Below, one piece after another: positions 1 to 41,326 of a stretch of DNA of 41,326 nucleotides. Each line of letters starts with the position of its first letter. Position 1 is the first letter of the stretch. The position numbers were made by a program, and so were the translations under genes. The notes under the pieces were generated by a model, which saw only the letters and a program-made list of their open reading frames with translations, was not told where the DNA came from and searched no databases. The stretch is from a virus (lineage: Duplodnaviria; Heunggongvirae; Uroviricota; Caudoviricetes), in the IMG/VR virus record IMGVR_UViG_2548876945_000011, positions 1-41,326 of that record; one strand, written 5' to 3'.

Positions 1-342
1 ATGATGAAAAAAAGTATTCTGGCGTTTCTGTTACTCACCAGTTCTGCAGCGGCGCTGGCTGCACCGCAGGTGATTACCGTCAGTCGTTTTGAAGTGGGTA
101 AAGACAAATGGGCGTTTAATCGCGAAGAGGTGATGCTGACTTGCCGACCGGGTAATGCTTTGTATGTTATTAATCCGAGTACCCTCGTGCAGTATCCTTT
201 AAACGATATCGCACAAAAGGAAGTTGCCAGTGGGAAGACCAATGCCCAACCCATTTCGGTGATTCAGATTGATGATCCTAACAATCCCGGCGAAAAAATG
301 AGTCTGGCACCGTTTATAGAACGAGCTGAAAAACTCTGTTAA
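1..342 (+). CDS. yebY: YebY, periplasmic DUF2511-family protein (host gene)
   Basis: Complete 113-aa ORF with N-terminal signal peptide ([22 protein letters not shown]); matches my memory of E. coli YebY; K-12 neighbour of pphA. Confidence 0.75.
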
Positions 343-415: not shown

Positions 416-500
416 CATTTCAGCTGATGACCACCACGCTTTTTATTGACCATTTTGCACGCAAACTGGAAAACCTGGCGTCGTCATCTATTCTTAAAGG

Positions 501-603
501 GCAAGGCAACTAAGCCTGCATTAATGCCAACTTTTAGCGCACGGCTCTCTCCCAAGAGCCATTTCCCTGGACCGAATACAGGAATCGTATTCGGTCTTTT
601 TTT
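501..603 (+). ncRNA. sdsR: SdsR/RyeB-like sRNA; its 3' terminator coincides with the prophage attL core
   Basis: About 103 nt between a sigmaS-like -10 (TCTATTCTT near 487-497) and a perfect hairpin CCGAATAC-AGGAATC-GTATTCGG followed by T7; the yebY-pphA intergenic region is the known sdsR/ryeA locus. Identity from memory, not searched. Confidence 0.5.
578..597. repeat. attL core (ACAGGAATCGTATTCGGTCT)
   Basis: 20-bp sequence repeated with one mismatch at 40234-40253; adjacent to int; weaker flanking similarity extends to about 574-603. Confidence 0.6.
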
Positions 604-645
604 AATTGTATTTAAAATCAATTAGTTGCAAACGTCTCCCCGAAA

Positions 646-734: not shown

Positions 735-1811
735 TCAGAGCAGTAAGTACGTTTTTTCTCTCTCATCAAGATACATTTTTGTTGTCTTCTCCGATGTGTG
801 GCCAAGTAGACGTTGAGCAAATTCTTCCCCACATGTTTCTTTGTACAATCGTCCAGCCAGACTTCTGATCTCGTGAAAAGTTGGTGGGTTTTCACTGAAC
901 TGGATACCTGTTAATTTTCTGGCTGCGACAAATTTCTTTGTCAGGCCGTCCGGGTGAATGCTGCCGTCAGGGCTGTTTTTTCTAATCCCGGCACTGATTA
1001 GATAATCCCCCCTACTTACCATGCGGCACTGTTCAACTACTGTACCAAGTCGTAAACCAGCGACAGGAAGGCTGAGTGACAGGGGGATAGCAATCATCAT
1101 TCCTGTCTTAATTTGCCTGATGTGGAGACGATCATCATAAATCTCACTGAACCGCATATTTGTTATGTCTTCGCGACGTTGTCCTGTTACAAGGGCTAAG
1201 TCCATAGCTAATGGGAACCATGTCGGAAGTTGATCTGCTGCCTCCCTGATGCAGTTGTATGTCTTTAGTTTCAGCCGTTCTCTTGTAACTACTATTTTCG
1301 GTGCTCTTGTTGGCGTTACTGGATTTTGAGATATACGTCCTTCAACAATGGCCTCGCGGAACATATCAGATAACACAGAACGCATTGATCCTGCCATCGT
1401 GTTTTTCCCTCCTTCAATCCACAAATCAAGAAACTCGGCAATATGGCGAGTGGTTATTTCTGTCAGTAAAACTCCTCCTAATTTTTCTTTTATTGTCTCC
1501 AGTTGATTTACCCGAATTTTATAAGTATTTCTGGACACTTTTCTCCTTATAAGAATCGTTTTGTAACGTTCAATCCAGTCTGCCATAGTAAATGAGTCGA
1601 ACCCTTTTAGTTTTTCAATTAAGGCAGCAGGAGAGTAGTTTTTGTATATATAATGATTTGCTTCAATTGCCTGCGCTACTGCATCTCTTCTTGAAATTTT
1701 ACCTAGTGTAAATTCTTCTTTCGTCAGAGGGTTGCGCCAGTAATATGCTTTGTCCCTCCTTCGATATGTTAAGTTTTTAGGCAAATTGGGATCGTATTTT
1801 TTCCGCTGCAT
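735..1811 (-). CDS. int: Tyrosine integrase, lambda Int family
   Basis: 358-aa ORF; N-terminal arm-binding-like region and overall similarity in pattern to lambda Int; next to the att core and overlapped by the xis ORF. Confidence 0.9.
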
Positions 1812-2164: not shown

Positions 2165-2353
2165 TCACGAGGACAGAAGTTTCTCGCAATTAAAATTTAT
2201 CAGCTTTACTTTCTGCTCTCTGGACACGCCTGCTTCTTTTTTCCCTGAGAGCATTTTTTCGCATTCTGATTTCGTTAATTTAGATTTTGAATATCTTGTC
2301 CAGTTAGTAGGAGTGCCACCTTCTTTTTCAATAGTGGCAGTTATTTTATACAT
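2165..2353 (-). CDS. Small hypothetical early protein (YdaC-like position)
   Basis: 62-aa ORF starting at an internal ATG preceded by GGAGGTG; AT-rich; lies between xis and ralR as ydaC does in Rac. Confidence 0.4.
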   Translation of the reverse strand: MYKITATIEKEGGTPTNWTRYSKSKLTKSECEKMLSGKKEAGVSREQKVKLINFNCEKLLSS

Positions 2354-3406: not shown

Positions 3407-6050
3407 TTGCATACTCCTTAGCCCAGCGGGGCAGTGATAACGTTTTAATAGCTGGCCATTCATCGGTATTCAGGCAGTCAGCCAGGGTCCTCAGATTGCG
3501 GTGATATTCCTGCTGGCCTGCCAGTTTTGCTTCTTCGCCCATCATGAAAATCTCAACCGGGTAACGTCCGCATTCAACAGTTGTGCTGGCAACCAGAAAA
3601 ACGAAAGTTGGCAGCACGCCAAACTGTGCTTCATAACCGTCACTGTAGAATGCATCCTGAACGTGATAGCGGTAGTCGTAATAAGCCGTTTTGAATCGTT
3701 GAATATCCGCTGTGGTTTTCACGTCCATGATCCAGTGAAATTCAGGAATAATTTTGTCCGGACGGCACCGACACAAAATTCCTGTTTCCGGATCTTCCCA
3801 GTAAATTGATGATTCAGCGTGTCCGGCGCTTTCAACAAGCCATTGCCCCAGCGGCAAAGCCATAACGCTTTGATACATGAGTTCAATTTTCCGGCCTTCT
3901 TCCGCAGTGATAACCGTTTTTCCTGTGCTTGCGCATTCCATCAGAAACGCTTTCTCTTCTTCTTTTCCGGCGTTTGTACGGCGGTTAAATTCAGGTGCTA
4001 CGATAAAGCGGTTACTGAATTCTTCCGGTTCAAGTACCCGGCAGTGGAAAGCGGTTCCTAAATCGAGCGTTTTTGTCTTTGTAGTGTCCACGGGGGCATT
4101 TTTACGCCACAAATACAGTGCCGGAGTATCAGCAATGTCATCGAGCTGAGACTTACTGACACCGGGACCCGCGTGGTAATTCTCATTCGAAATTCCGTAA
4201 TAAATACCTGGCTCTATGTCTTCTACGATTACGGGATCTGCGACTTCGCCAGTTTCATCACTGCAATCGCGATGCGGATCGCTGCCAGCATTCTCATTGT
4301 GCGGATGTTCAGCGCCTTCCATTTCCTCCGGATCTTTTTCCTTAGCTTCAACCTGATTCTCTTCACCGAATGTTTCCTGGTATGTTGCGTCGCCCATCAC
4401 CGCACCACAGTCAGGGCAGTTATCCCCGCCAGTCTGACCGCAGGCATTGCAGACTATTTCCGGTTCCTGTTGCACTACTGGCTCAGGTTGTTTCGCATCC
4501 GGGCTGATTTTTTCCGTTTCTGGCTGGTTCTGGTACACAGAATCGCGAGTCTGGATCCCCTTAACCCATTTCGGATCGTTCGGGTCGCTAATCCCTTCAA
4601 CAAATTCTCCGCGAGAGGCAGCCAGTAATTTGTCTGCATCGACAGGATTTTTGGGCGGAATGTTTTTCCGGGCTTCATGGAGTTCTGCCCGCAGTTTCTG
4701 ATATTTCGCATCAACAGAATTTACCTGTGACTGAGCATCCAGCGACTGCGTGTCCTGATGATGTTCAGTTGCATCCGGTTCCACTGTTTCAGCCGTTGCC
4801 TGTTCATCTGCCATTGCGCAAGATGGTTGCAGTTTTTCTTCATCATCCTGTTTTTCTTCTTCTGTTACACGCTGCGGCATCGGGGCAGAGGAACGACCGC
4901 AGGCAATATCCACGATTTCTGGATCAGGGTTGGCATGATCAGTTTCAGTCAGTACTTTGTTCAGATATTCAGTGACGTGTGCGGGGATAACCTCGATCCC
5001 AATTGGTGCTTCTTTTACGGACGCAACCACGATGGCGCGGGAATAATCCAGCCCACCAGGCATGGTGATGAATTTGTCGCGGAAAACAGAAAAGGGTGGT
5101 TTATTTTCAGCGATAATTTCCTCGACACGTTTAGCGTGTGCCGGATGAAGGTTATAAATGTCCACGTCCATTGAACGAGCCAGTACGCCAGTGGCTACGT
5201 CGCGCGCCAGTGACGTCAGATCGTGAACGAAACCTTCGCCGCGATCGGTGAGGTTCCCGCCGCCAGCATTAGCGCCGGAAGCCGTGCGCGTGATGCGTGA
5301 AACACGATTTCCTTTTCGCCATTCTTTTGTCAGAAGACCGCGATCAATGTGTTCGGTATCCAGCCAGGCTGAAATGAAATTCTTAAATTCATAGGGCTGA
5401 TGTTTTTTCGTGATAGAGAACACTGCCTTAATTGCATCAGTCAGGCGGAGCAGGGCGGCATTATCCAGAGTTGTCGGTTCTGCCATGCTGCGTATGGCCA
5501 ACAGCAGATTCTGGACATAGCTGTTTTCCTGATCCATCTCAAGAGCAGTAATGTGTTTGCGTTGTTCACGGGTGGCATGATGCAGGTATTTCCGATCCCC
5601 GGCAGCATACGTAAAAATGTGCAGAAGACGCTGTGTGAACCGCAAAGTGGCTACAGAGACTTCGCAATCCTGGCAATCCTCGTGGGCGTCTGCCTGCGCG
5701 TTTTCTTCCTGGCCTCCCGCCAGTTCTTTGGTTTCTTGAGCATTATCCTGGTGGTGAACGTCGTCTGGCGCTGCTCCCGGTTTTAGTTCCCAGGTCATGG
5801 AGTCTTTGCTGAGTTGATAGCGTTCACTCCAGGTAAAATCGATCTCACCTTCAGGGGGCAGGTCATTAACGACAGGAAAATTCGTGGCAACAGCTTTAAA
5901 ATAGCTGCTCAGTTTTTTACCTGACTTAACGATCAGGTAGTCCAGAGTGGCACAGGTCGATTCAAAATCGTCGCTTGCCCACAGGACGACGTCAGGTTCA
6001 CCGGATGATTTTTTCGCTTTCCGTAACAGGAAGAGTGGTTTTGTGCTCAT
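3399..6050 (-). CDS. recE: RecE exonuclease VIII
   Basis: 883-aa ORF immediately upstream of and overlapping recT; N-terminus [14 protein letters not shown]... and length agree with Rac RecE. Confidence 0.9.
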
Positions 6051-12228: not shown

Positions 12229-12439
12229 GCGAGATTAATTATCAGGAAGGACATGATTTCGTTATGCTTGATGGAGGGCGCTATATATTTTCCTCGCACC
12301 TGTGATAAAAATGATGAGCCGAGACTGTATTTACGGGACGCTGAGAGAATACCATAGAAAAGCTTATCTAACTTAAGTAGAATTGCTGCGGGTGCTTGAG
12401 GCTATCTGCCTCAGGCATGAACACCAAAGGCAGATAGAG

Positions 12440-12510
12440 AAAAGCCCCAGTTAACATTACGCGTCCTGCAAGACGCTTAACATTAATCTGAGGCTCAATC
12501 TATGAACGGC
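12440..12510 (-). ncRNA. sok: Sok-like antisense RNA (antitoxin of the hok locus)
   Basis: Minus-strand promoter TTGCCT (12545-12540), 17-bp spacer, TAACCT (12522-12517); the transcript would be complementary to the mok start region. Ends are approximate. Confidence 0.4.
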
Positions 12511-12558
12511 AAATCTAGGTTAGCCTCTTACGTGCCGAAAGGCAAGGAGAAGCAGGCT

Positions 12559-12714
12559 ATGAAGCAGCAAAAGGCGATGTTAATCGCCCTGATCGTCATC
12601 TGTTTAACCGTCATAGTGACGGCACTGGTAACGAGGAAAGACCTCTGCGAGGTACGAATCCGAACCGGCCAGACGGAGGTCGCTGTTTTCGTAGACTACG
12701 AATCTGAGAAGTAA
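12559..12714 (+). CDS. hok: Hok/Gef-family type I membrane toxin
   Basis: 51-aa MKQQKAMLIALIVICLTVIVTALVTRKDLCEVRIRTGQTEVAVF...; closely matches the HokD/RelF and HokC sequences I remember; in-frame mok-like leader from 12502. Confidence 0.8.
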   Translation: MKQQKAMLIALIVICLTVIVTALVTRKDLCEVRIRTGQTEVAVFVDYESEK

Positions 12715-14347: not shown

Positions 14348-14407
14348 TCCGAAGCGCCAGCAAAATCTGGCGTCGGGATTGGAACCCCGGATATCGAAAC
14401 GGTGCAT

Positions 14408-14427
14408 ACCGCGCTGGCGGTTTTTTT
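14408..14427 (+). terminator. Candidate tR'-like terminator
   Basis: ACCGC-GCTG-GCGGT hairpin followed by T7, about 60 nt downstream of the candidate late promoter. Confidence 0.4.
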
Positions 14428-14590
14428 ATGCGCTAAGCACAGTCACATTCGCGATTTATGGCGGGCTGTGTGGGGGCACCGAAAGGTGCACCGGATGTTT
14501 CGACCGGTAGTTCCAACCCTGCACAGTTCGCCACCCGATGATTGGAACCTGAAGGTGGTGAGGTAAAAATTATCGAAACGCGAGGTCGTT

Positions 14591-32241: not shown

Positions 32242-33273
32242 ATGTCGAAAAACTGGATGCGTCACTTTGAATTATTGCTTGTTGATGATAAGGGCGACGG
32301 GATAAAAATTTCTGAGCTTAAAGTCACTTTCAATATTCAGAAAATGCCTGCGACCATATTCAATGGATTCGTTGGGAATTTTAAGGTTTATAACCTGTCC
32401 CCTACCACTCAGAACCGGATTATGCAGAAGGAGTTTTCGCGTATACAGGTTATTGCCGGATACAAGGGGCAACCGGATGCAGCAGGTAATTATCCTGATG
32501 AAAACGTTGGTATGATATTCAATGGAGATATCCGTTTTACTGTCACTGGTAAAGATAATGCCACGGACAGTTGGATCATGTTGCAGTGTATTGACAGCTG
32601 GGAAGGCCACCTGAACGCAAGTGTGAAAACCACAGTGGCAGCTGGCTGGAAGTACAGAGATCTTTTCAGTCTGGGTATGAAATCATTCGAACCATATGGC
32701 ATCGAATCCGGCGCAGTTCCTGACATGCCTGAAACGGTATTTCCCCGGGGTCGCGTTGTTTATCAAAACACATCAAGGTTGATGAATCATATCGCAGGGC
32801 AGTGTAAGGCTAACTGGTGGTATGAAAATAATCTGGTAAATATTGTTCCTGAAGATAAATATATTGGTGTTGCTACGGTGTTGAATGCTAACACCGGGCT
32901 TATCGGTATGCCACAGCAGACGATGGGAGCTGGCGTAAATGTCAGATGTCTGATTAATCCAAATATTAAGCTCGGTGGGCTTATTCGTCTGGATCAGGCA
33001 TCTGTATACCGTGCCTCTTTGAGTAATGACCAGGTAGCGAAATCGCCAGCACGACTGGATGAGTCTGAAAGCGACGGTAATCTCTACGTTAACGGTCTGC
33101 CAGGCATGTCACAGCCTGCCAGCATTAATACTGACGGTGATTACATTGTGGGCAGCATTGATTATACTGGCGACACCCGAGGGCAGGCGTGGTATATGGA
33201 CCTGCTTTGCCTGGCTAAAGGTGGCAAAGAATTGCTTAACTCGAAAGGGATTGATGCGGCGAAATACACATGA
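32242..33273 (+). CDS. Putative baseplate hub protein
   Basis: 343-aa ORF upstream of the spike, gp25-like and baseplate J genes (Mu-like order). Confidence 0.5.
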   Translation: MSKNWMRHFELLLVDDKGDGIKISELKVTFNIQKMPATIFNGFVGNFKVYNLSPTTQNRIMQKEFSRIQVIAGYKGQPDAAGNYPDENVGMIFNGDIRFTVTGKDNATDSWIMLQCIDSWEGHLNASVKTTVAAGWKYRDLFSLGMKSFEPYGIESGAVPDMPETVFPRGRVVYQNTSRLMNHIAGQCKANWWYENNLVNIVPEDKYIGVATVLNANTGLIGMPQQTMGAGVNVRCLINPNIKLGGLIRLDQASVYRASLSNDQVAKSPARLDESESDGNLYVNGLPGMSQPASINTDGDYIVGSIDYTGDTRGQAWYMDLLCLAKGGKELLNSKGIDAAKYT

Positions 33274-33605
33274 AAAGACCATTGTTGACAGTTTTACTTG
33301 TCTGTATCTCCTTCATTTCCTTTGCTGATACCGGTTGCGGACCATTTACGATCAACTGGAAAGCGCAAGACGGACTTGCAAGGATTAATGGACAGAAACC
33401 GGAGACACAGAAAATCATCTTTCTCAAACAGGAAGGTGATTATGATAATGTGAACATCCAATGGATGATTCCGGGTAATGGGCGTTGGTTAGGGATGGAT
33501 TTTGTGGCCAGAAATGGCAAGCCGATCCTCAACGTTGAAGTTATCCGCAAAAATATGGACGAGCCTCGGGAGTTATGGACGTATGATTGCCGGAAGGTGA
33601 AGTGA
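33270..33605 (+). CDS. Secreted hypothetical protein inside the baseplate operon
   Basis: 111 aa with Sec signal peptide (MKRPLLTVLLVCISFISFA/DTG) and two Cys in the mature part; ATGA overlap with the hub gene. Confidence 0.55.
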   Translation: MKRPLLTVLLVCISFISFADTGCGPFTINWKAQDGLARINGQKPETQKIIFLKQEGDYDNVNIQWMIPGNGRWLGMDFVARNGKPILNVEVIRKNMDEPRELWTYDCRKVK

Positions 33606-33744: not shown

Positions 33745-33984
33745 ATGTTCGGATTTGATAAATTAATAACTCCAAAAATCATCAACGTTCTGTATGGCAT
33801 CACAATGTTACTTCTGGTTGTTGCCGCCATTATAACGTTTGTTAATGGGAAGGCTGCTGGCGCTTTAGTGCTTTTGTTATGTGCTGTATTTTGCCGAATA
33901 TTCTTTGAGTGCATCATGGTTTCATTTAAAAACAATGAGTATCTTCGCCGAATAGCTGAAGCGTTAGAAGCAAACAAGCAGTAA
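33745..33984 (+). CDS. Small two-helix membrane protein (DUF4282-like)
   Basis: 79 aa (MFGFDKLITPKIINVLYGITMLLLVVAAI...); about 37.5% GC by hand count; flanked by its own promoter and terminator. Confidence 0.6.
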   Translation: MFGFDKLITPKIINVLYGITMLLLVVAAIITFVNGKAAGALVLLLCAVFCRIFFECIMVSFKNNEYLRRIAEALEANKQ

Positions 33985-34043: not shown

Positions 34044-34796
34044 ATGCCCGTTTCTTTAAGCGCTCAACTTGGTAGCAAAGAACAGGCCGATGTAAGACTT
34101 GCTGGCTCTGTCATGTCGGCGCTGCGTGTTTCTATGCCCGGCATCGTCCAGTCATTTGATCCGGACACGGTAACAGTGGTTGTTCAACCTGCGATTAAAG
34201 GCTATGAGCCGGACTCAAATGGAATCAACCAGTCGACGACATTACCCCTGCTGGTGGATGTGCCAGTGGTATTTCCGCGCGGCGGAGGCTGTACGTTGAC
34301 TTTTCCGGTAAAAGCCGGTGATGAATGTCTGGTGATTTTTGCTGATCGTTGTATTGATTTCTGGTGGCAGAACGGCGGGATACAGGAGCCGGTCGATGAC
34401 AGAATGCATGATTTATCGGATGGGTTTTGTATTGTCGGTCCCCAGTCGCAGGCGAGGAAGATTAGCGGTATTAATACCAGTGCTACACAGTTGCGTAGTG
34501 ACGACGGCAGCACCTATTTTGAGCTTAATCCTGATACCCGGAAAATTAAAATTGTCGCTCCGGGGGGGCTTGATGTGGTTGCCCCTCTGGCTGATTTTTC
34601 TGAGAAAGTAACCATTCATGGCCTGTTAACCTGGATGGGTGGCATGGTGGGGTCTGTTGTTTCTGGTGTGGCTTCAAAAATCACTGGTGCTGTTGAGTTT
34701 TTGGGTAGCGTGAAGGCTAACGGCAAGCCAATCGATGATACGCACACTCATGGCGGTGTTCAGCGCGGTGGAAGCAATACCGATGGGGTAAACTGA
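34044..34796 (+). CDS. Baseplate assembly/spike protein (gpV-like)
   Basis: 250-aa ORF with GGAGA RBS at the spike position of a Mu-like baseplate cluster. Confidence 0.5.
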   Translation: MPVSLSAQLGSKEQADVRLAGSVMSALRVSMPGIVQSFDPDTVTVVVQPAIKGYEPDSNGINQSTTLPLLVDVPVVFPRGGGCTLTFPVKAGDECLVIFADRCIDFWWQNGGIQEPVDDRMHDLSDGFCIVGPQSQARKISGINTSATQLRSDDGSTYFELNPDTRKIKIVAPGGLDVVAPLADFSEKVTIHGLLTWMGGMVGSVVSGVASKITGAVEFLGSVKANGKPIDDTHTHGGVQRGGSNTDGVN

Positions 34797-35149
34797 TGCG
34801 ATACAGACGTGAAGACGCCGATGGCGATTACACCTTTGGCAGCGGTGATGACACCTGGCTGATTAACTCACCGGAGGCCGTGGCGCAGGCGGTAAAAACG
34901 CGATTCGAATTGTGGTATGGGCAATGGTTTCTCGACACCACCGAAGGGACTCCGTGGATCCAGTCCGTGCTCGGTAAGCAGAAGCCGGAAACCTACAACC
35001 TGGCGATCCGTAAGCGCATCCTCGAAACGCGGGGCGTTAAATCAATCCTCTCTTTCAATACGACAGTGGATACCACGACCCGACGTGTCATGTTTTCCGC
35101 TGAAATCGACACTCTTTATGGAATAACGACTGTTACATCGGAGGCGTAA
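34796..35149 (+). CDS. Baseplate wedge protein (gp25/W-like)
   Basis: 117-aa ORF between the spike and baseplate J genes. Confidence 0.5.
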   Translation: MRYRREDADGDYTFGSGDDTWLINSPEAVAQAVKTRFELWYGQWFLDTTEGTPWIQSVLGKQKPETYNLAIRKRILETRGVKSILSFNTTVDTTTRRVMFSAEIDTLYGITTVTSEA

Positions 35150-36348
35150 TGGCTCTGAACCTTGATTCTCTCGGTTTATCTGCAAAGGTAACCGCGGAGG
35201 GGATCAGTGCGCCTGATTATCAGACGATACTCAGCACCCTGATTAGCTATTTTCAGCAGATTTATGGCAGTGATGCCTACCTCGAACCGGACAGCAAAGA
35301 CGGCCAGATGGTGGCTCTGATGGCGTTGGCGATTCATGATGCCAATAATACGGCGATAACTGTCTACAACTGTTTTTCACCGGCAACCGGCTATGGGGCT
35401 GCACTGACCAGTAACGTGAAAATAAATGGTATTTCACGTAAAGGCGCGACGAATTCTACGGTTGATTTGCTTCTTACAGGAACTGCCGGAACAACCATCA
35501 TTAATGGCAGCGTGAAAGACAGTAATAATGTGATATGGCGTTTGCCTGCTTCAGTGGTGGTCGGCGTGGATGGTACAGTGATGGTGACTGCAACATGTTC
35601 CGTCAGTGGTGCAGTGGCGGCGCTGGCTGGAACTATCACTGAAATAAATACGCCAACCCGTGGCTGGGTTTCGGTAACTAATCCTGCTGCGGCTACCGTG
35701 GGCACTCCGGCAGAAACTGACGCGGAGTTACGTATCCGCCAGTCGCAAAGTGTTGCGTTGCCATCAATAACCCCATTTGAAGCACTGGATGGTGCTGTTT
35801 CTAATGTTACCGGTGTAACCCGCCACAAACTCTATGAAAACGATACTGGTTCGGAGGACGGTAACGGGTTACCGCCACACTCTGTTGCTGTAATTGTGGA
35901 TGGCGGTGATGTAACGGATATTGCTCAGGCTATCAGAGGGAATAAAGGCCAGGGGACAGCCACTCACGGTACAACATCCGTTACGGTTCCGGATAAATAC
36001 GGCAATCCCCATGTAATCAAATTCTCGCGTTCCAGTGATGTGCCTGTTTATGCCCGGATTAAATTAAAAGTTTTTACGGGTTATACCTCACAGATAGGGC
36101 AGCAGATCCAGCAGGCTATTTCCGACTATATCAATAGTCTGATGATTGGTAATTCGGTCCTTTTAAGTCGCATTTACTCACCGGCGAATCTTGGCGTGGT
36201 GAGTGGCGGGAATGCACGCTATTACGATATTCAGGAACTGACGATTGGGAAATCCCCGGGGGCTTTGTCGTCATCAAACATTGATATCAGATATAACGAA
36301 TCTGCGTCCTGTACCCCGGAAAATATCGTTATAACGGTGGAGTCATGA
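35149..36348 (+). CDS. Baseplate J-like protein
   Basis: 399-aa ORF, the size and position typical of baseplate J (Mu gp47-like). Confidence 0.65.
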   Translation: MALNLDSLGLSAKVTAEGISAPDYQTILSTLISYFQQIYGSDAYLEPDSKDGQMVALMALAIHDANNTAITVYNCFSPATGYGAALTSNVKINGISRKGATNSTVDLLLTGTAGTTIINGSVKDSNNVIWRLPASVVVGVDGTVMVTATCSVSGAVAALAGTITEINTPTRGWVSVTNPAAATVGTPAETDAELRIRQSQSVALPSITPFEALDGAVSNVTGVTRHKLYENDTGSEDGNGLPPHSVAVIVDGGDVTDIAQAIRGNKGQGTATHGTTSVTVPDKYGNPHVIKFSRSSDVPVYARIKLKVFTGYTSQIGQQIQQAISDYINSLMIGNSVLLSRIYSPANLGVVSGGNARYYDIQELTIGKSPGALSSSNIDIRYNESASCTPENIVITVES

Positions 36349-37025
36349 GCAAATACACCGAACTAATCACGAACTACCACGCCACCAAACCTAAATTTCT
36401 TGCACATGTTGATCTGATGACCCGGCCGCTTATTGATGTTGCGGCTGCCACCAGAGGGCTGATTACTGCATTTGATATTGACTCTGCGGTTGGTGTGCAA
36501 CTTGACATTCTGGGATTGTGGATCGGACGTAGCCGTGTTGTCAGCCAGCCTATTTCAGGTGTCTATTTCAGCTGGGATACCGACGGGCTTGGATATGATC
36601 AGGGTGTATGGCAGGGGCCATACGATCCTGATTCCGGATACATGTACCTCAGCGATGAAACTTATCGTGTCATCCTTAAAGCGAAGATTGCGATTAATAA
36701 CTGGGACGGACGGAATGATTCGCTTCCGGCAATTCTTGACGCGGCAACAGCAGGATCCGGACTGCGAATGCAGATAGTCGATAACCAGGACATGACGATA
36801 TCGGTCTGGGTCTTTCCTGATACTGATATTTCAGATGTATCGCGTGAGTTAATTGCGGCAATTAAACAGGGGTATCTCACAGTAAAAGCCGCCGGGGTAT
36901 GGGCGGGTGGCATTGAAACACCTTCGGTGGAAACCCCATCGGAAGGCTCAAAATTTTTTGGTTTTGATATGGATAACGAATTCATCAGTGGTTTTGATGT
37001 AGGAGCATGGGGAGTATTACTCTGA
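36345..37025 (+). CDS. Baseplate/tail protein (gpI-like)
   Basis: 226-aa ORF immediately upstream of the tail fiber gene, joined to it by an ATGA overlap. Confidence 0.5.
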   Translation: MSKYTELITNYHATKPKFLAHVDLMTRPLIDVAAATRGLITAFDIDSAVGVQLDILGLWIGRSRVVSQPISGVYFSWDTDGLGYDQGVWQGPYDPDSGYMYLSDETYRVILKAKIAINNWDGRNDSLPAILDAATAGSGLRMQIVDNQDMTISVWVFPDTDISDVSRELIAAIKQGYLTVKAAGVWAGGIETPSVETPSEGSKFFGFDMDNEFISGFDVGAWGVLL

Positions 37026-37834
37026 TGGCGAAAAATGACTTTAAAGCGTTTGCAACGGATCGAAATGCCAATGTTATATCGCAGGAGGAATGGGAAGCGT
37101 TGCCCGCGCTTTTATCTGGATTTACAGCAGGGAAAGCCTCCAGTGCGCAAGTCAATAAGGTTATTCGGCAGGCCAGCTTTATTGCTGCAGCTCTGGCCCA
37201 GTTTGTAAGTGATAAAACGCAACGGGATGTGCTTGATAATGGTGATCTGCCCGGTTTTGTTGAATTGCTGGGATCGGGGTTTGCTGTTGAATACCTGAGC
37301 CGCAAGAATCCGTTTGGTGATATCAAATCGGATGGCACGGTGAAAACGGCTCTCGAAAACCTTGGTTTGGGAGAAGGCTCTGCATTACCGGTTGGTGTGC
37401 CTGTTCCGTGGCCTTCAGCCACTCCGCCAACGGGGTGGCTAAAATGTAACGGAGCAGTATTTTCTTCTGAAAAGTACCCAAATCTGGCAAAGGCTTACCC
37501 AACATTAAAATTACCAGATTTACGCGGTGAATTTATTCGTGGCTGGGATGATGGGCGCGGGATTGACTCTGGTCGTAACTTATTATCTGCACAGAATGAT
37601 GCAATTCAGAATATTGTTGGTTCTTTTGGGCGTACCCAGCTTTTTAGAGACGTACTTAGTTCAGGGCCATTTAGTCAACATGGGCAAGTATTATCTACAG
37701 GTCTAAAGGAAGCCGAAATTATTGATGGTTATGGCGCTTATAACTGGACATTCGACGCATCTCGCTCAGTTCGCACAGCATCTGAAACCCGCTCCCGTAA
37801 CATCGCCTTTAATTATATTGTGAGGGCTGCATGA
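37025..37834 (+). CDS. Tail fiber protein (constant N-terminus plus invertible C-terminal collar domain)
   Basis: Tail-collar-like motif PVGVPVPWP...LPDLRGEFIRGWDDGRGIDSGR; the crossover site at 37350-37375 lies inside the ORF. Confidence 0.7.
   Translation: MAKNDFKAFATDRNANVISQEEWEALPALLSGFTAGKASSAQVNKVIRQASFIAAALAQFVSDKTQRDVLDNGDLPGFVELLGSGFAVEYLSRKNPFGDIKSDGTVKTALENLGLGEGSALPVGVPVPWPSATPPTGWLKCNGAVFSSEKYPNLAKAYPTLKLPDLRGEFIRGWDDGRGIDSGRNLLSAQNDAIQNIVGSFGRTQLFRDVLSSGPFSQHGQVLSTGLKEAEIIDGYGAYNWTFDASRSVRTASETRSRNIAFNYIVRAA
37350..37375. repeat. Left crossover site of the invertible segment (hix/gix-like)
   Basis: CTCTCGAAAACCTTGGTTTGGGAGAA fits the Hin/Gin-family consensus TTnTnnnAAACCnnGGTTTnnnAnAA; its right 14 bp are a perfect inverted copy of 39295-39308. 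Confidence 0.65.
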
Positions 37835-38436
37835 TAAGTAAAGCTGTATTAAATAATGAACTCATCGCCACAAAGGCCGGAGACATTACCGTTTATAATT
37901 ATGATGGTGAAACACGGGAATATATTTCCACATCAACTGAATATCTTGCTGTGGGTGTCGGTATCCCGGCATGTTCCTGTTTAGATGCTCCTGGCTCATA
38001 TAAAGCTGGTTATGCAATTTGCCGTTCTGCAGATTTTAACTCATGGGAATATGTGCCAGACCATCGCGGTGAAGTTGTCTATAGTACCGAAACGGGAGAT
38101 ACCAAAGAAATCGCAGTTCCGGGTGATTATCCTGAAAATACAACCACTATCGCCCCGTTAACGCCATACGATGAATGGGATGGTGAGAAATGGGTGACCG
38201 ATACTGAAGCACAGCATAGCGCCGCAGTAGGCGCGGCAGAAGCACAGCGTCAGTCACTGATTGATACTGCAATGGCTTCCATTAGTCTGATTCAACTGAA
38301 ATTGCAGGCCGGGCGGAAGCTGACGCAGACAGAAAACACCCGACTTAACGCTGTGCTGGATTACATTGACGCGGTGACTGCAACAGATACCAGCACCGCG
38401 CCGGATGTCATCTGGCCTGAACTACCGGAGGCGTAG
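37831..38436 (+). CDS. Tail fiber assembly protein
   Basis: 201 aa with C-terminal ...APDVIWPELP motif typical of Tfa proteins; follows the fiber gene. Confidence 0.7.
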   Translation: MISKAVLNNELIATKAGDITVYNYDGETREYISTSTEYLAVGVGIPACSCLDAPGSYKAGYAICRSADFNSWEYVPDHRGEVVYSTETGDTKEIAVPGDYPENTTTIAPLTPYDEWDGEKWVTDTEAQHSAAVGAAEAQRQSLIDTAMASISLIQLKLQAGRKLTQTENTRLNAVLDYIDAVTATDTSTAPDVIWPELPEA

Positions 38437-38851
38437 GCCATTCAATATCTGGAGCACTGGAGGTATCAACCAGTTCCAGTGCGTCCAGATAATCCAGCCA
38501 TAAATTATATTGTTCCAGCTCGTAACCTTTCAGACGACCAATAGCAGCTTTGCCAGGCCACTGATGGGTATTGATGTAGTTATTGACTTCTGAAACCAAA
38601 GATATCTTTTTCATTTCAGCCGCCAGCATCTCATCCTCTTTTGAAGGCGGCGGGGAATTAATCCATATTGGCCGTCCTGAACTGTCAGCGCCAATTTCTT
38701 TCCCTTCTGGATGCAGCCCAAGAAATTGCTCATATGTTTCTCTGGTAATTTCAATAACATCATCAGGAAGCGTTCCCGCATCCTCATATTCTGGAAACAA
38801 TTCTTGCAGATAAAAACTTTTACTTGCGGGTGAAAAGAATACTGAGTTCAT
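38408..38851 (-). CDS. Alternative tail fiber assembly protein (inverted orientation)
   Basis: 147 aa on the opposite strand with C-terminal ...APDIEWPTPP motif; convergent with the first tfa. Confidence 0.7.
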   Translation of the reverse strand: MNSVFFSPASKSFYLQELFPEYEDAGTLPDDVIEITRETYEQFLGLHPEGKEIGADSSGRPIWINSPPPSKEDEMLAAEMKKISLVSEVNNYINTHQWPGKAAIGRLKGYELEQYNLWLDYLDALELVDTSSAPDIEWPTPPVVQAR

Positions 38852-38853
38852 TC

Positions 38854-39348
38854 TTACCGTCCAATGATTAACGCTGAGACGCTGGTATCTGAAGGAAAGG
38901 CTGCATTCAGTGGTTTGTCGACTTTGAACACAATCGTATTATTCCCCCTGACAGCGGCAAAAGAACAAACCGCCGTCGCGTATGAACCTGTAATATTACT
39001 GGATACACCACCATAAGCTGTTGTTGATACCAGAGGGATAACGCCCAGCACCTTATTAGGAAATACAAAGGGCAATGTGGCTGTGGCAATATAAGACTTA
39101 TTAGAACCTGTAATGGCATAAGCATTATCAGTCATTCCATTCATCGCCACTGGACCGCTTATACTTACAGTAACCATCTGAATGATTAGCCCGTCAGGTT
39201 GACGAATCACAAAATTTCCATTGCCACCAGTAACCGTCCAGAAAGACATATCAGGGATTTGGTTTTCCCCGTTGCCCACATTTCGTTTTGCCGCTTCTCC
39301 CAAACCAACGTTTATGAAAATGCAGAAATAACGAGCAAATGGCATCAT
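38854..39348 (-). CDS. Alternative tail fiber C-terminal segment (expressed only after inversion)
   Basis: Minus-strand ORF whose N-terminal region encodes GLGE across the right crossover site, matching ENLGLGEG at the left site; lacks its own plausible start. Confidence 0.55.
   Translation of the reverse strand: MMPFARYFCIFINVGLGEAAKRNVGNGENQIPDMSFWTVTGGNGNFVIRQPDGLIIQMVTVSISGPVAMNGMTDNAYAITGSNKSYIATATLPFVFPNKVLGVIPLVSTTAYGGVSSNITGSYATAVCSFAAVRGNNTIVFKVDKPLNAAFPSDTSVSALIIGR
39295..39320. repeat. Right crossover site of the invertible segment
   Basis: TTCTCCCAAACCAACGTTTATGAAAA; inverted match to the left site with identical central dinucleotide after inversion. Confidence 0.65.
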
Positions 39349-39374
39349 TCCTGCTTTTGTCAGGGGGATCTACC

Positions 39375-39929
39375 ATGCTTATTGGCTATGTACGCGTATC
39401 AACAAATGACCAGAACACAGATCTACAACGTAATGCGCTGAACTGTGCAGGATGCGAGCTGATTTTTGAAGACAAGATAAGCGGCACAAAGTCCGAAAGG
39501 CCGGGACTGAAAAAACTGCTCAGGACATTATCGGCAGGTGACACTCTGGTTGTCTGGAAGCTGGATCGGCTGGGGCGTAGTATGCGGCATCTTGTCGTGC
39601 TGGTGGAGGAGTTGCGCGAACGAGGCATCAACTTTCGTAGTCTGACGGATTCAATTGATACCAGCACACCAATGGGACGCTTTTTCTTTCATGTGATGGG
39701 TGCCCTGGCTGAAATGGAGCGTGAACTGATTGTTGAACGAACAAAAGCTGGACTGGAAGCTGCTCGCGCACAGGGACGAATTGGTGGACGTCGCCCCAAA
39801 CTTACACCAGAACAATGGGCGCAGGCCGGGCGACTAATTGCATCAGGAGTTCCTCGCCAGAAGGTGGCGATCATTTATGATGTTGGCGTATCGACTTTGT
39901 ATAAGAAGTTTCCGGTCGGAGATAAATGA
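39375..39929 (+). CDS. pin: Serine DNA invertase (Pin/Gin/Hin/Cin family)
   Basis: 184 aa from MLIGYVRVSTNDQNTDLQRNAL... with catalytic-Ser N-terminus and C-terminal HTH; adjacent to the invertible segment. Confidence 0.85.
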   Translation: MLIGYVRVSTNDQNTDLQRNALNCAGCELIFEDKISGTKSERPGLKKLLRTLSAGDTLVVWKLDRLGRSMRHLVVLVEELRERGINFRSLTDSIDTSTPMGRFFFHVMGALAEMERELIVERTKAGLEAARAQGRIGGRRPKLTPEQWAQAGRLIASGVPRQKVAIIYDVGVSTLYKKFPVGDK

Positions 39930-40233
39930 AACCGTAGCACGTCGTATGCAAGAACGTGCCACGGCTGGCTGATGGACGTTCGATAGCGCGAGTTTGAATG
40001 AAAATCAGCCGGAGGTGATTTTACATAATTGTTGCGGAATCATTCAATATAGGGATTGCTTATTTCTGCCTGGATTGGTCTGAAATAGTCCCGAAATTTT
40101 CTCTAAAAAACTCGAAAAAAATGGTAACTAATTGAATGCATTAATATGCAATGGTACGTGTTTGGGATTAAAAGATGAGCGTAATTTTGCTTAACAAATT
40201 AATTTAAAAAGGGTTTCTTGTTTGTTGACGAAA

Positions 40234-40253
40234 ACAGGAATCGTGTTCGGTCT
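40234..40253. repeat. attR core (ACAGGAATCGTGTTCGGTCT)
   Basis: 19/20 match to the attL core at 578-597, with weaker flanking similarity; 140 bp upstream of pphA. Confidence 0.6.
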
Positions 40254-40393
40254 CTTTTTATCTGTTAAAAGCCAGAAGCATTTCCTTCGCTGACTTTATA
40301 GTCAACCATAACACACACTCTACTGTCTGAGTCCAGCGTTTTTTAACATTCTTGTTAAGATTATGTGATCTTTAGCGCGGGAGGAAAATATTG

Positions 40394-41050
40394 ATGAAAC
40401 AGCCTGCGCCCGTTTATCAGAGAATTGCGGGTCATCAATGGCGACATATCTGGCTTTCTGGCGATATACACGGTTGTCTTGAGCAGTTGCGCCGCAAATT
40501 ATGGCATTGTCGTTTTGATCCGTGGCGAGATTTACTTATCTCAGTGGGAGACGTTATCGATCGTGGGCCGCAAAGTTTACGTTGTCTGCAGTTACTGGAA
40601 CAACATTGGGTTTGTGCGGTAAGAGGCAATCATGAACAGATGGCGATGGATGCGCTGGCATCCCAGCAGATGTCTTTGTGGTTGATGAATGGCGGCGACT
40701 GGTTTATTGCGCTGGCAGATAATCAACAGAAACAAGCGAAAACGGCGCTGGAAAAATGTCAGCATTTGCCCTTTATTCTTGAAGTACACAGTCGCACCGG
40801 CAAGCATGTTATTGCTCATGCCGATTATCCAGATGATGTTTATGAATGGCAAAAGGACGTTGATTTGCATCAGGTCTTGTGGAGCCGCTCGCGATTAGGT
40901 GAACGCCAAAAAGGGCAGGGAATTACAGGTGCTGATCATTTCTGGTTTGGTCATACACCGTTGCGACATCGCGTGGATATTGGCAACCTGCATTATATTG
41001 ATACCGGTGCTGTCTTTGGGGGCGAACTGACTCTTGTGCAATTGCAATAA
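40394..41050 (+). CDS. pphA: Serine/threonine protein phosphatase 1 (host gene)
   Basis: 218 aa with metallophosphatase motifs (GDIHGC, GDVIDRG, GNHE); matches my memory of E. coli PphA; GGGAGGAAAAT RBS. Confidence 0.85.
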   Translation: MKQPAPVYQRIAGHQWRHIWLSGDIHGCLEQLRRKLWHCRFDPWRDLLISVGDVIDRGPQSLRCLQLLEQHWVCAVRGNHEQMAMDALASQQMSLWLMNGGDWFIALADNQQKQAKTALEKCQHLPFILEVHSRTGKHVIAHADYPDDVYEWQKDVDLHQVLWSRSRLGERQKGQGITGADHFWFGHTPLRHRVDIGNLHYIDTGAVFGGELTLVQLQ

Positions 41051-41242
41051 TTAAAAATCACCGTACTCCTGTGCAGGTCGCCAGAAACCATCTATAAAAT
41101 CCTCAATCGGAAAACAACCGCCCTGGCGGATCCGTTGATCGCTCATAGAATAAAGACACTGCTGTTCCGTGTTGTAGACATCCACAACAATATCTTCACA
41201 ACCGCCATCCAGGTAGCAAACAAAAAGTACCAGCGCGAACAT
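41051..41242 (-). CDS. yebW: YebW-like small protein (host gene)
   Basis: 63-aa product from MFALVLFVCYLDGG..., the length of K-12 YebW; convergent with pphA; the tracked ORF extends upstream to the window edge. Confidence 0.55.
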   Translation of the reverse strand: MFALVLFVCYLDGGCEDIVVDVYNTEQQCLYSMSDQRIRQGGCFPIEDFIDGFWRPAQEYGDF

Positions 41243-41326
41243 TTCATCCCCGAAGTGTGGTGCCGTACCGTTAAGTTTAGGAGAGATTTTACAACGGGGG
41301 AATAACCAGGACAAATAACCCGCCAT

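Follow-up and report, generated by a model that had tools for sequence, protein, structure and literature searches.

Genes and reading frames of the fiber locus

The DNA analyzed here, a stretch of 41,326 nt referred to below as the window, carries a prophage of ~39.7 kb inserted between yebY and pphA, where the SdsR/RyeB sRNA locus is. The prophage appears complete, with an integrase, an early region, and terminase, head, tail, and baseplate genes. For the downstream phosphatase gene the name pphB was considered and rejected, the syntenic locus of Escherichia coli CD45 being annotated as pphA. The fiber locus of this prophage has a constant fiber 5' part outside a segment that contains two opposed, in-frame fiber 3' ends, each paired with a separate assembly gene; the gene for an invertase lies just outside the segment on the other side (Table 1).

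Table 1 Features of the tail-fiber locus (positions are those of the window)
Feature	Position	Strand	Description
Constant fiber part (Sc, ~113 aa)	37025..37362	+	Ends ...KTALENLGLGE at the crossover site; outside the segment
Left crossover site, 26 bp	37350-37375	+	CTCTCGAAAACC-TT-GGTTTGGGAGAA; central dinucleotide 37362-37363
Variable C-terminus Sv, expressed orientation	37363..37834	+	Phage tail collar domain
Assembly gene paired with Sv, 201 aa	37831..38436	+	Pfam Caudo_TAP (E=1.1e-30); phrog_105
Alternative assembly gene paired with Sv', 147 aa	38408..38851	-	Pfam Caudo_TAP (E=2.4e-27); phrog_188
Alternative C-terminus Sv', ~150 aa from GLGE	38854..39307	-	Silent in the present orientation
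Right crossover site, 26 bp	39295-39320	-	Minus strand TTTTCATAAACG-TT-GGTTTGGGAGAA; central dinucleotide 39307-39308
Serine DNA invertase gene (Pin, 184 aa)	39375..39929	+	Outside the segment; 54 bp beyond the right site
Candidate recombinational enhancer	39397..39459	+	Two Fis-like 15-mers, TATCAACAAATGACC and GTGCAGGATGCGAGC; motif pattern match

The most likely start of the fiber gene is the ATG at 37025, which overlaps the stop codon of an upstream DUF2612 gene; a start at 37007 was set aside. The constant part matches the PHROG tail-fiber N-terminal families phrog_11303 and phrog_1396 and is collinear in the related prophages of CD45, TL20, and MLI108K3. The variable end that follows it in the present orientation contains a Pfam Collar domain (PF07484, E=4e-15) and shares 65% identity with the C-terminus of StfE from e14. 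The original prediction had proposed to compare the variable domains with known receptor-binding domains. In PDB sequence searches, this tip matched T4 gp37 (2xgf, E=5.6e-16) and a chain named 'Short tail fiber' (9cuy, E=6.6e-24), and the inverted isoform returned no relative. The alternative tip is unrelated in sequence to the collar tip. It matches phrog_12714 (E=8.6e-48) and, at 24.2 bits, falls slightly under the 24.9 cutoff of Pfam Gp53-like_C. A single-sequence AlphaFold2 model of this tip (38857-39306, minus strand) had a pLDDT of 45.6 and was unusable, and an NCBIfam search found no model for the fiber or chaperone proteins.

Each variable end has a cognate Caudo_TAP gene, in agreement with the earlier proposal that the alternative tip is paired with a second assembly gene. 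The 201-aa assembly protein is 90.4% identical to K-12 TfaE, and the 147-aa protein is 54.5% identical to K-12 TfaP. The two genes converge and share 29 bp at their 3' ends. Scans for promoters and terminators in and near the cassette did not rise above background and were uninformative.

In silico inversion at the central dinucleotide joins the constant N-terminus to the minus-strand alternative C-terminus in one uninterrupted ORF, as had been predicted. From the ATG at 37025 the isoforms are 269 aa long in the present orientation and 263 aa long in the inverted one, equal to the lengths of the RefSeq coding sequences in TL20 and CD45; the CD45 annotation calls the fused product, of 263 aa, a gp53-like domain-containing protein. 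The 164-aa 'hypothetical protein' adjoining pin is really an alternative fiber 3' end. The two tips presumably differ in receptor specificity.

Crossover sites, invertase, and candidate enhancer

The two inverted 26-bp sites of the original prediction are present, and the ORF map confirms that one lies in the fiber gene and the other at the 5' end of the minus-strand alternative C-terminus. Site 1 has the plus-strand sequence CTCTCGAAAACCTTGGTTTGGGAGAA and site 2, once reverse-complemented, the sequence TTTTCATAAACGTTGGTTTGGGAGAA; the two are identical at 21 of 26 positions, including the central TT and the entire 12-bp right half-site. The TT occupies positions 13-14 of each site on its own reading strand, so that the sites form an inverted pair with the same dinucleotide. 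Both encode GLGE across the site, within ENLGLGE-G for the plus-strand site and INVGLGE-A for the minus-strand site, which bears out a further element of the prediction. Outside the two sites, the 41-kb window has no copy of the 14-mer TTGGTTTGGGAGAA, even at two mismatches, and the site pair is the top inverted repeat in 36300-40400. A relaxed scan of 36900-40000 for further crossover-like sites, as in Min- or EPEC-type multi-inversion shufflons, returned only the two sites.

In a shuffle control with two mismatches allowed, 7 of 100 shuffles also yielded at least two matches, and the short inverted repeat alone is therefore not beyond chance. The site pair is beyond chance because both 26-mers are base-for-base the sites that flank the invertible P segment in the e14 element of E. 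coli K-12 MG1655 (left site 1779-1804 and right site 3606-3631 of e14 sequence L004), and because in phage Mu the annotated ends of the G segment coincide with the centers of the equivalent 26-mers. The left site holds the repeat TTGGTTTGGGAGAAGG, described for the e14 P segment (PMC12529663), and both sites conform in layout to the 26-bp sites tabulated in PMC4134206 (Table 3).

The adjacent gene encodes a serine invertase, as predicted. Its product, Pin, has the Pfam domains Resolvase (E=1.5e-51, residues 3-135) and HTH_7 (3.5e-14, residues 138-180), belongs to the DNA invertase family phrog_125, and is 97.3% identical to K-12 PinE and 79.4% identical to Mu Gin; in NCBIfam it was under the cutoff for every family matched. 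Length is within the ~180-195 aa of the family, and the resolvase domain, with its Ser9/Ser10 nucleophile, and the HTH_7 domain are both in place. Residues that contact Fis or the enhancer and are absent from resolvases have been described in Hin as Gln151, Arg154, and Leu155, with basic residues at Hin positions 47, 48, and 51 (PMC3798978). At Hin numbering minus 1, Pin has Ser9, K46/K47/R50, and Q150/R153/L154, so that the invertase-specific residues are also present. The five substitutions that separate Pin from PinE (window residue first: A129T, S157A, V159T, K178R, and V181A) spare all catalytic and Fis-contact positions checked.

The original prediction had also proposed a search for a Fis-dependent enhancer toward the 5' end of the invertase gene. 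A pair of Fis-like 15-mers has centers 48 bp apart, with the first center 96.5 bp from the crossover center, and Mu gin has 15-mers at the same positions and distances. The motif used for scanning was degenerate, and over the whole window it found 4 such pairs against 2.6 expected. Since the pair is not distinctive by motif count, it carries weight only through its placement and its agreement with pinE and gin; over its first 190 nt, pin matches K-12 pinE at 100% identity. This arrangement plausibly marks an enhancer, and inversion would then be expected to depend on Fis.

Both orientations in related prophages

In E. coli CD45 this prophage occupies the same position in the chromosome, adjoining pphA, and carries window positions 37357-39313 in inverted orientation at 98.2% identity. 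The breakpoints are within the two sites, and both flanks are collinear with the window (98.4% and 96.8% identity). In TL20 the segment is in the forward orientation. Both orientations therefore occur in nature among closely related prophages, and the orientation of this region may legitimately differ between assemblies and annotations. The original prediction depended on the occurrence of an inverted orientation and on an in-frame fusion, and both were found, the former in CD45. The site sequences are the same in the flipped isomer as in the window, which would be expected if exchange at the central dinucleotide is conservative.

Public E. coli genomes contain the predicted inverted left junction, with 100% identity along 300 bp, and 7 genomes match it at 98-100%; the sequence of this junction includes ...GAAAACCTTGGTTTGGGAGAAGCGGCAAAACGAAATG... 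Right junctions of both types are also present at 100% identity in public genomes. A census of the right junctions (159 vs 897 genomes) is confounded by e14-like loci in which the collar tip also adjoins pin, and it gives no orientation frequency. The whole 3.1-kb region had no collinear match at ≥99% among the complete E. coli genomes in the collection, so that the source strain either is absent from this set or has another orientation or cassette.

Two other origins of the opposite orientations in public genomes are conceivable, namely assembly error and recombination of the short inverted repeats with each other through RecA; the arms do share a 20-nt repeat that is 95% complementary. However, the exact repeat is only 15 bp, far under the length of an efficient RecA substrate. 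The breakpoints fall at canonical 26-bp invertase sites adjoining an invertase gene, and each orientation is seen in independent complete assemblies, which makes this explanation highly implausible.

A second possibility concerns the present state of the switch. The architecture could be intact and yet no longer flip in the source strain, because pin is unexpressed or one of its substitutions is inactivating, in which case the opposite orientations elsewhere would record past events. Related copies do decay, and the recombinase gene of both TL20 and MLI108K3 is a truncated pseudogene. In the window, however, the pin ORF is full length and retains Ser9 and every invertase-specific residue checked. 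Its product differs little from PinE, which is active when expressed (PMC12529663), and the sites do not differ from functional e14 sites. Related invertases can moreover work in trans on such sites (PMC12529663, PMC4134206). Loss of switching is thus distinctly unlikely, and the cassette would be expected to invert in the source strain.

Relation to known inversion systems and predicted operation of the switch

The ORF map, the in silico inversion, the domain assignments, and the comparison with the Mu annotation place the locus with cassettes of the Mu G, P1 C, and e14 P type. The stretch 37350-39929 is very probably a Gin/Cin/Pin-type invertible tail-fiber cassette in an apparently complete prophage. 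The Pin/tail-fiber switch is real and well formed, and it is ordinary in the sense that it belongs to the known, classic site-specific inversion systems.

The P segment of e14 with PinE (stfP-tfaP / tfaE-stfE-pinE in K-12) has the same gene order, identical 26-bp sites, the same 54-bp gap between site and pin, and the same 29-bp overlap of convergent assembly genes. The locus is not e14 itself, which is defective, lies at icd, and carries the stfP/tfaP/tfaE/stfE set, whereas the cassette described here lies in an apparently complete element of ~39.7 kb at SdsR/RyeB, between yebY and pphA. Center to center, the e14 segment measures 1827 bp and the present one 1945 bp. The StfP tip of e14 has no meaningful similarity to the gp53-like tip (39% in a local alignment of 80 aa that scores 47). 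Positions 37298-37377 (80 bp, of which ~65 bp are the end of Sc) are 96% identical to e14 stfP, whereas the constant fiber N-terminus and the backbone upstream of 37298 are unrelated to e14. The crossover site is thus a module boundary, at which a unit of e14-type pin and site is joined to another phage backbone and another tip. The e14 segment with the same flanking repeat is inverted by PinE and PinQ (PMC12529663), and its phase variation has been detected by whole-genome sequencing and PCR (PMC4272514).

The G segment of Mu with Gin (S/U, S'/U') follows the same order of Sc, site, Sv-U, U'-Sv', site, a 54-bp gap, and the invertase. It differs in its length of 3058 bp, in several positions of the crossover sites, including the central dinucleotide, and in its fiber and chaperone proteins, which are essentially unrelated to those described here (26-39% over short local matches). 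In E. coli EC958, the prophages Phi1, Phi2, and Phi4 have invertible tail-fiber segments of 2-3 kb with 26-bp sites, alternative collar 3' ends, and an adjacent invertase (PMC4134206). Compared by published description, the Phi2 sites (...ACCTT GGTTTAGGAGAA and ...AAACGTT GGTTTGGGGGAA) closely resemble the present ones, but the prophages are different and so are their constant fiber parts, which have Phage_fibre_2 repeats in EC958 (PMC4134206). With such similar sites, ~50% of the segments in the EC958 prophages were flipped in PacBio reads (PMC4134206). The H segment of Salmonella with Hin involves the same enzyme family, and the same invertasome mechanism is assumed here; Hin acts with Fis and an enhancer ~100 bp from hixL (PMC4513852, PMC3798978). 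The residues to which these two papers draw attention are conserved in Pin, at Hin numbering minus 1, as Ser9, Phe87, Phe104, His106, Met108, Gln150, Arg153, and Leu154. Hin, however, flips a promoter that controls flagellin genes and does not swap alternative coding 3' ends.

The comparison with e14 also suggests another function for the switch, namely that host defense by receptor masking, rather than phage host range, is its main role. The copy adjoining pin could yield a free fragment that blocks adsorption of other phages, from an ORF with its own ATG and an 18-aa leader, MMPFARYFCIFINVGLGE (39348, minus strand), a role already put forward for StfE2, the e14 chimera. This leader is identical at 14 of 17 positions to the start of e14 StfE, MPFACYFFIFINVGLGE, and StfE2, which is generated by inversion, blocks T2 adsorption (PMC12529663). 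However, unlike e14, the element appears to be a complete prophage, for which a virion fiber function is the simpler reading. No promoter-like site for the minus-strand ORF was found near 39350-39450, the upstream AGGA abuts the first ATG at a poor spacing, and conservation of the leader may merely reflect overlap with the crossover site and the pin promoter region. Masking as the main function is therefore unlikely, and there is a similarly low probability that a lysogen expresses the tip adjoining pin as a free receptor-masking fragment from the leader ORF. If it does, each inversion would at the same time toggle a superinfection-exclusion or anti-phage phenotype, in line with what has been claimed for StfE2 of e14 (PMC12529663).

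A switch of virion fiber tips would operate as follows. Dimers of the PinE orthologue would bind the two inverted sites and, with host Fis on the enhancer within the 5' end of pin, assemble an invertasome on supercoiled DNA. Ser9-mediated cuts, staggered by 2 nt, would be made at the central TT of both sites, one pair of subunits would rotate by 180 degrees, and religation would leave the 1945-bp segment inverted. Promoter, ribosome-binding site, and the ~113 initial fiber codons would all lie outside the segment and stay fixed, so that the orientation of the segment would select one of the 3' ends, with its assembly gene, for expression. The present orientation would give the collar-domain tip on a 269-aa fiber, together with the 201-aa TfaE-like chaperone, and the other orientation the gp53-like tip on a 263-aa fiber, together with the 147-aa TfaP-like chaperone. 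The phage released would then comprise two receptor specificities, a form of bet-hedging in host range, and host-range predictions for this prophage must take two tips into account.

Crossover sites and invertase

The two 26-bp sites in inverted orientation that the original prediction placed around the fibre tips are identical to those of e14: in the e14 region of E. coli K-12 MG1655 (L004), the sites flanking the P segment (1779-1804 and 3606-3631) match both 26-mers base for base. Site 1 (left, plus strand) includes the e14 repeat TTGGTTTGGGAGAAGG (PMC12529663), both sites have the 26-bp arrangement around a central dinucleotide that has been published for other prophages (PMC4134206, Table 3), and the annotated G-segment boundaries of phage Mu coincide with the centre of the equivalent 26-mers. 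Aligned with the reverse complement of site 2 (right, minus strand), site 1 agrees at 21 of 26 positions; the central TT and the entire right half-site are among them. The pair is the top-ranking inverted repeat of the region, and the 14-mer TTGGTTTGGGAGAA occurs in the window only at these two sites, even with two mismatches permitted. A 15-bp inverted repeat within 41 kb is not by itself beyond chance; it is the comparison with e14 and Mu, rather than repeat length, that settles the pair as real.

Coordinates of features in the window
Feature	Position	Strand	Details
yebY	1-342		flanking host gene
SraC/RyeA	463-607	-	bidirectional sRNA locus
SdsR/RyeB	504-603	+	bidirectional sRNA locus
Integrase-like ORF	735-1811	-	
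RalA antitoxin sRNA	2169-2347		
sok antitoxin RNA	12390-12564		
isrK	14354-14427		
C4 antisense RNA	14454-14538		P1/P7 immunity type
Tail fibre gene	37025-37834	+	269 aa
Site 1	37350-37375	+	CTCTCGAAAACCTTGGTTTGGGAGAA
Caudo_TAP assembly gene	37831-38436	+	201 aa; directly after fibre gene; 90% identical to K-12 TfaE
Caudo_TAP assembly gene	38851-38408	-	147 aa; after minus-strand variable ORF
Alternative variable ORF	39348-38854	-	
Site 2	39295-39320	-	reverse complement, TTTTCATAAACGTTGGTTTGGGAGAA
Invertase ORF (pin)	39375-39929	+	184 aa; Resolvase and HTH_7 domains
Fis-like 15-mer 1	39397-39411		TATCAACAAATGACC
Fis-like 15-mer 2	39445-39459		GTGCAGGATGCGAGC
pphA	40391-41050		flanking host gene

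The serine invertase gene expected beside the switch is present, with its start codon 54 bp from the right site, as in e14 and Mu alike. Its product is 97.3% identical to K-12 PinE (substitutions, window residue first, A129T, S157A, V159T, K178R, and V181A) and 79.4% identical to Mu Gin. The Ser9 nucleophile and the equivalents of Hin Phe88, Phe105, His107, and Met109 are retained. So are two features described as specific to enhancer-dependent invertases (PMC3798978): the basic residues of helix B (K46, K47, R50) and the triad that contacts Fis (Q150, R153, L154). The first 190 nt of pin are identical to K-12 pinE. A search for a Fis-dependent enhancer in this 5' part, as had been proposed, found two 15-mers that fit KNNYRNNWNNYRNNM, a degenerate Fis consensus. 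Their centres lie 48 bp apart, the first 96.5 bp from the crossover centre, and Mu gin has identical 15-mer positions and distances. Since the window contains 4 such motif pairs against 2.6 expected, which is not a significant excess, and since the conserved bases also code for conserved residues, we infer the enhancer in the 5' part of pin rather than regard it as established.

Alternative fibre tips and their assembly genes

The most likely start codon of the fibre gene is the ATG at 37025, which shares bases with the stop codon of an upstream DUF2612 baseplate gene. GLGE is encoded across both sites, as predicted: the constant fibre part terminates ...ENLGLGE at site 1, and the minus-strand frame across site 2 reads ...INVGLGE-AAKRN.... 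Inversion in silico at the central dinucleotide joins the constant N-terminus in frame to the alternative C-terminus, giving an unbroken fused fibre. It measures 269 aa when counted from 37007, the start in the ORF list, and 263 aa when counted from 37025; the latter value equals that of the annotated CDS in strain CD45. The tip expressed here has a phage tail collar domain (Pfam PF07484), and its sequence is related to T4 gp37 (2xgf) and to a 'Short tail fiber' chain of known structure (9cuy); the silent tip matches Pfam Gp53-like_C slightly under the cutoff and phrog_12714 strongly. The silent tip is paired with the second assembly gene, again as anticipated, and the 29-bp overlap of the convergent assembly genes at their 3' ends (38408-38436) is exactly the tfaP/tfaE arrangement of e14. 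The C-terminal motifs of the assembly proteins (LDYIDAV..DTSTAPD and LDYLDAL..DTSSAPD) give rise to a short inverted repeat at 38355-38372 and 38481-38498.

Very probably, Pin would catalyse inversion of the 1945-bp segment, likely in a Fis/enhancer-dependent manner, swapping the receptor-binding tip together with its cognate chaperone and yielding a phage population of mixed specificity. An 18-codon leader, MMPFARYFCIFINVGLGE (39295-39348, minus strand), supplies its own ATG to the silent variable domain and matches the first part of K-12 stfE at 14 of 17 residues; in the reported anti-T2 chimera StfE2 (PMC12529663), that part of stfE is the N-terminus. By analogy with StfE2, the leader-plus-tip ORF next to pin might act in defence or receptor masking, a reading that we disfavour. 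Since the leader shares its DNA with the crossover site and the stretch upstream of pin, its conservation may reflect a constraint on DNA rather than on protein.

Both orientations in related genomes

Predicted inverted junctions were constructed and used to search a set of 5,426 complete genomes of E. coli. Seven of them contain the predicted left junction, which joins the constant part to the gp53-like tip, over its full 300 bp and at 98-100% identity; TL20 has the parental left junction at 99.7%, and a further 60 or so genomes have it at 92-94%. Direct comparison shows that E. coli CD45 has this prophage as well, in the corresponding chromosomal location, followed by pphA, yebW, and yebV, with 34241-37376 collinear (98.4%), 37357-39313 inverted (98.2%), and 39294-41326 collinear (96.8%), so the inverted orientation is seen in nature; TL20 is collinear with the window throughout. 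The ends of the CD45 alignments overlap by 20 bp within each crossover site. Both sites are unaltered in the flipped isomer, as conservative exchange at the centre predicts. In published experiments, PinE and PinQ inverted the e14 segment, whose flanking repeats are the same as here (PMC12529663). e14 undergoes reproducible phase variation within clonal cultures (PMC4272514), and for similar prophage cassettes of EC958 the flipped form accounts for about 50% in PacBio reads (PMC4134206). A frozen switch is disfavoured, and so is inversion that is RecA-dependent or artefactual. Both right-junction types occur in public genomes at 100% identity, a census that is confounded by e14-like loci and is not taken as an orientation frequency. 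The observation behind the original prediction is confirmed and its interpretation supported.

CD45 carries two cassette copies, one at 2.39 Mb and one at 4.31 Mb, which face opposite ways relative to pin. The recombinase gene beside the segment is a truncated pseudogene in both MLI108K3 and TL20, whose segments are oppositely oriented; any flipping there would require an invertase in trans.

Host element and module boundary

The system belongs to a textbook family, its sites and enzyme are essentially identical to those of the e14 Pin system, and near-identical copies are already annotated in RefSeq genomes (pinE, tail fiber assembly protein); only the combination of tips and host element is new. 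The element is not e14 itself, as it is inserted at SdsR/RyeB between yebY and pphA and its backbone differs. Rather, an e14-type site-and-pin module is spliced to a different backbone from position 37298 onward. Some 65 bp before the left site, within the peptide SRKNPFGDIKSDGTV.TALENLGLGE, homology to e14 and several other E. coli prophage backbones sets in (37298-37377), and the cassette is common to other E. coli prophage backbones from the same point (alignments starting at query 399 or 452). The boundary is a module junction, the invertible cassette having passed between phages that have unrelated fibre N-termini.

The window apparently holds a complete prophage, about 39.7 kb long, whose insertion point is the 3' end of the SdsR/RyeB sRNA gene. 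An att-like direct repeat of ~30 bp, CGAA(T/A)ACAGGAATCGT(A/G)TTCGGTCT(T/C)TTTTTA, occurs at about 573-604 and again at 40228-40260. Its early region is Rac/lambdoid-like and its late region myovirus-like, the latter related to Salmonella phage SEN34 and Escherichia phage vB_EcoM-606R2, with baseplate genes immediately upstream of the fibre gene. The RalA, sok, isrK, and C4 RNAs are Rfam matches at gathering level within the prophage. Two small non-structural ORFs (33270-33605 and 33745-33984) lie between baseplate genes, one of 111 aa with a signal-peptide-like N-terminus and the other, of 79 aa, the counterpart of a DUF4282 protein annotated in MLI108K3. Related prophages bear different cargo at the same position, for example a HEPN-domain gene in TL20, which makes this region a possible moron or cargo hotspot.
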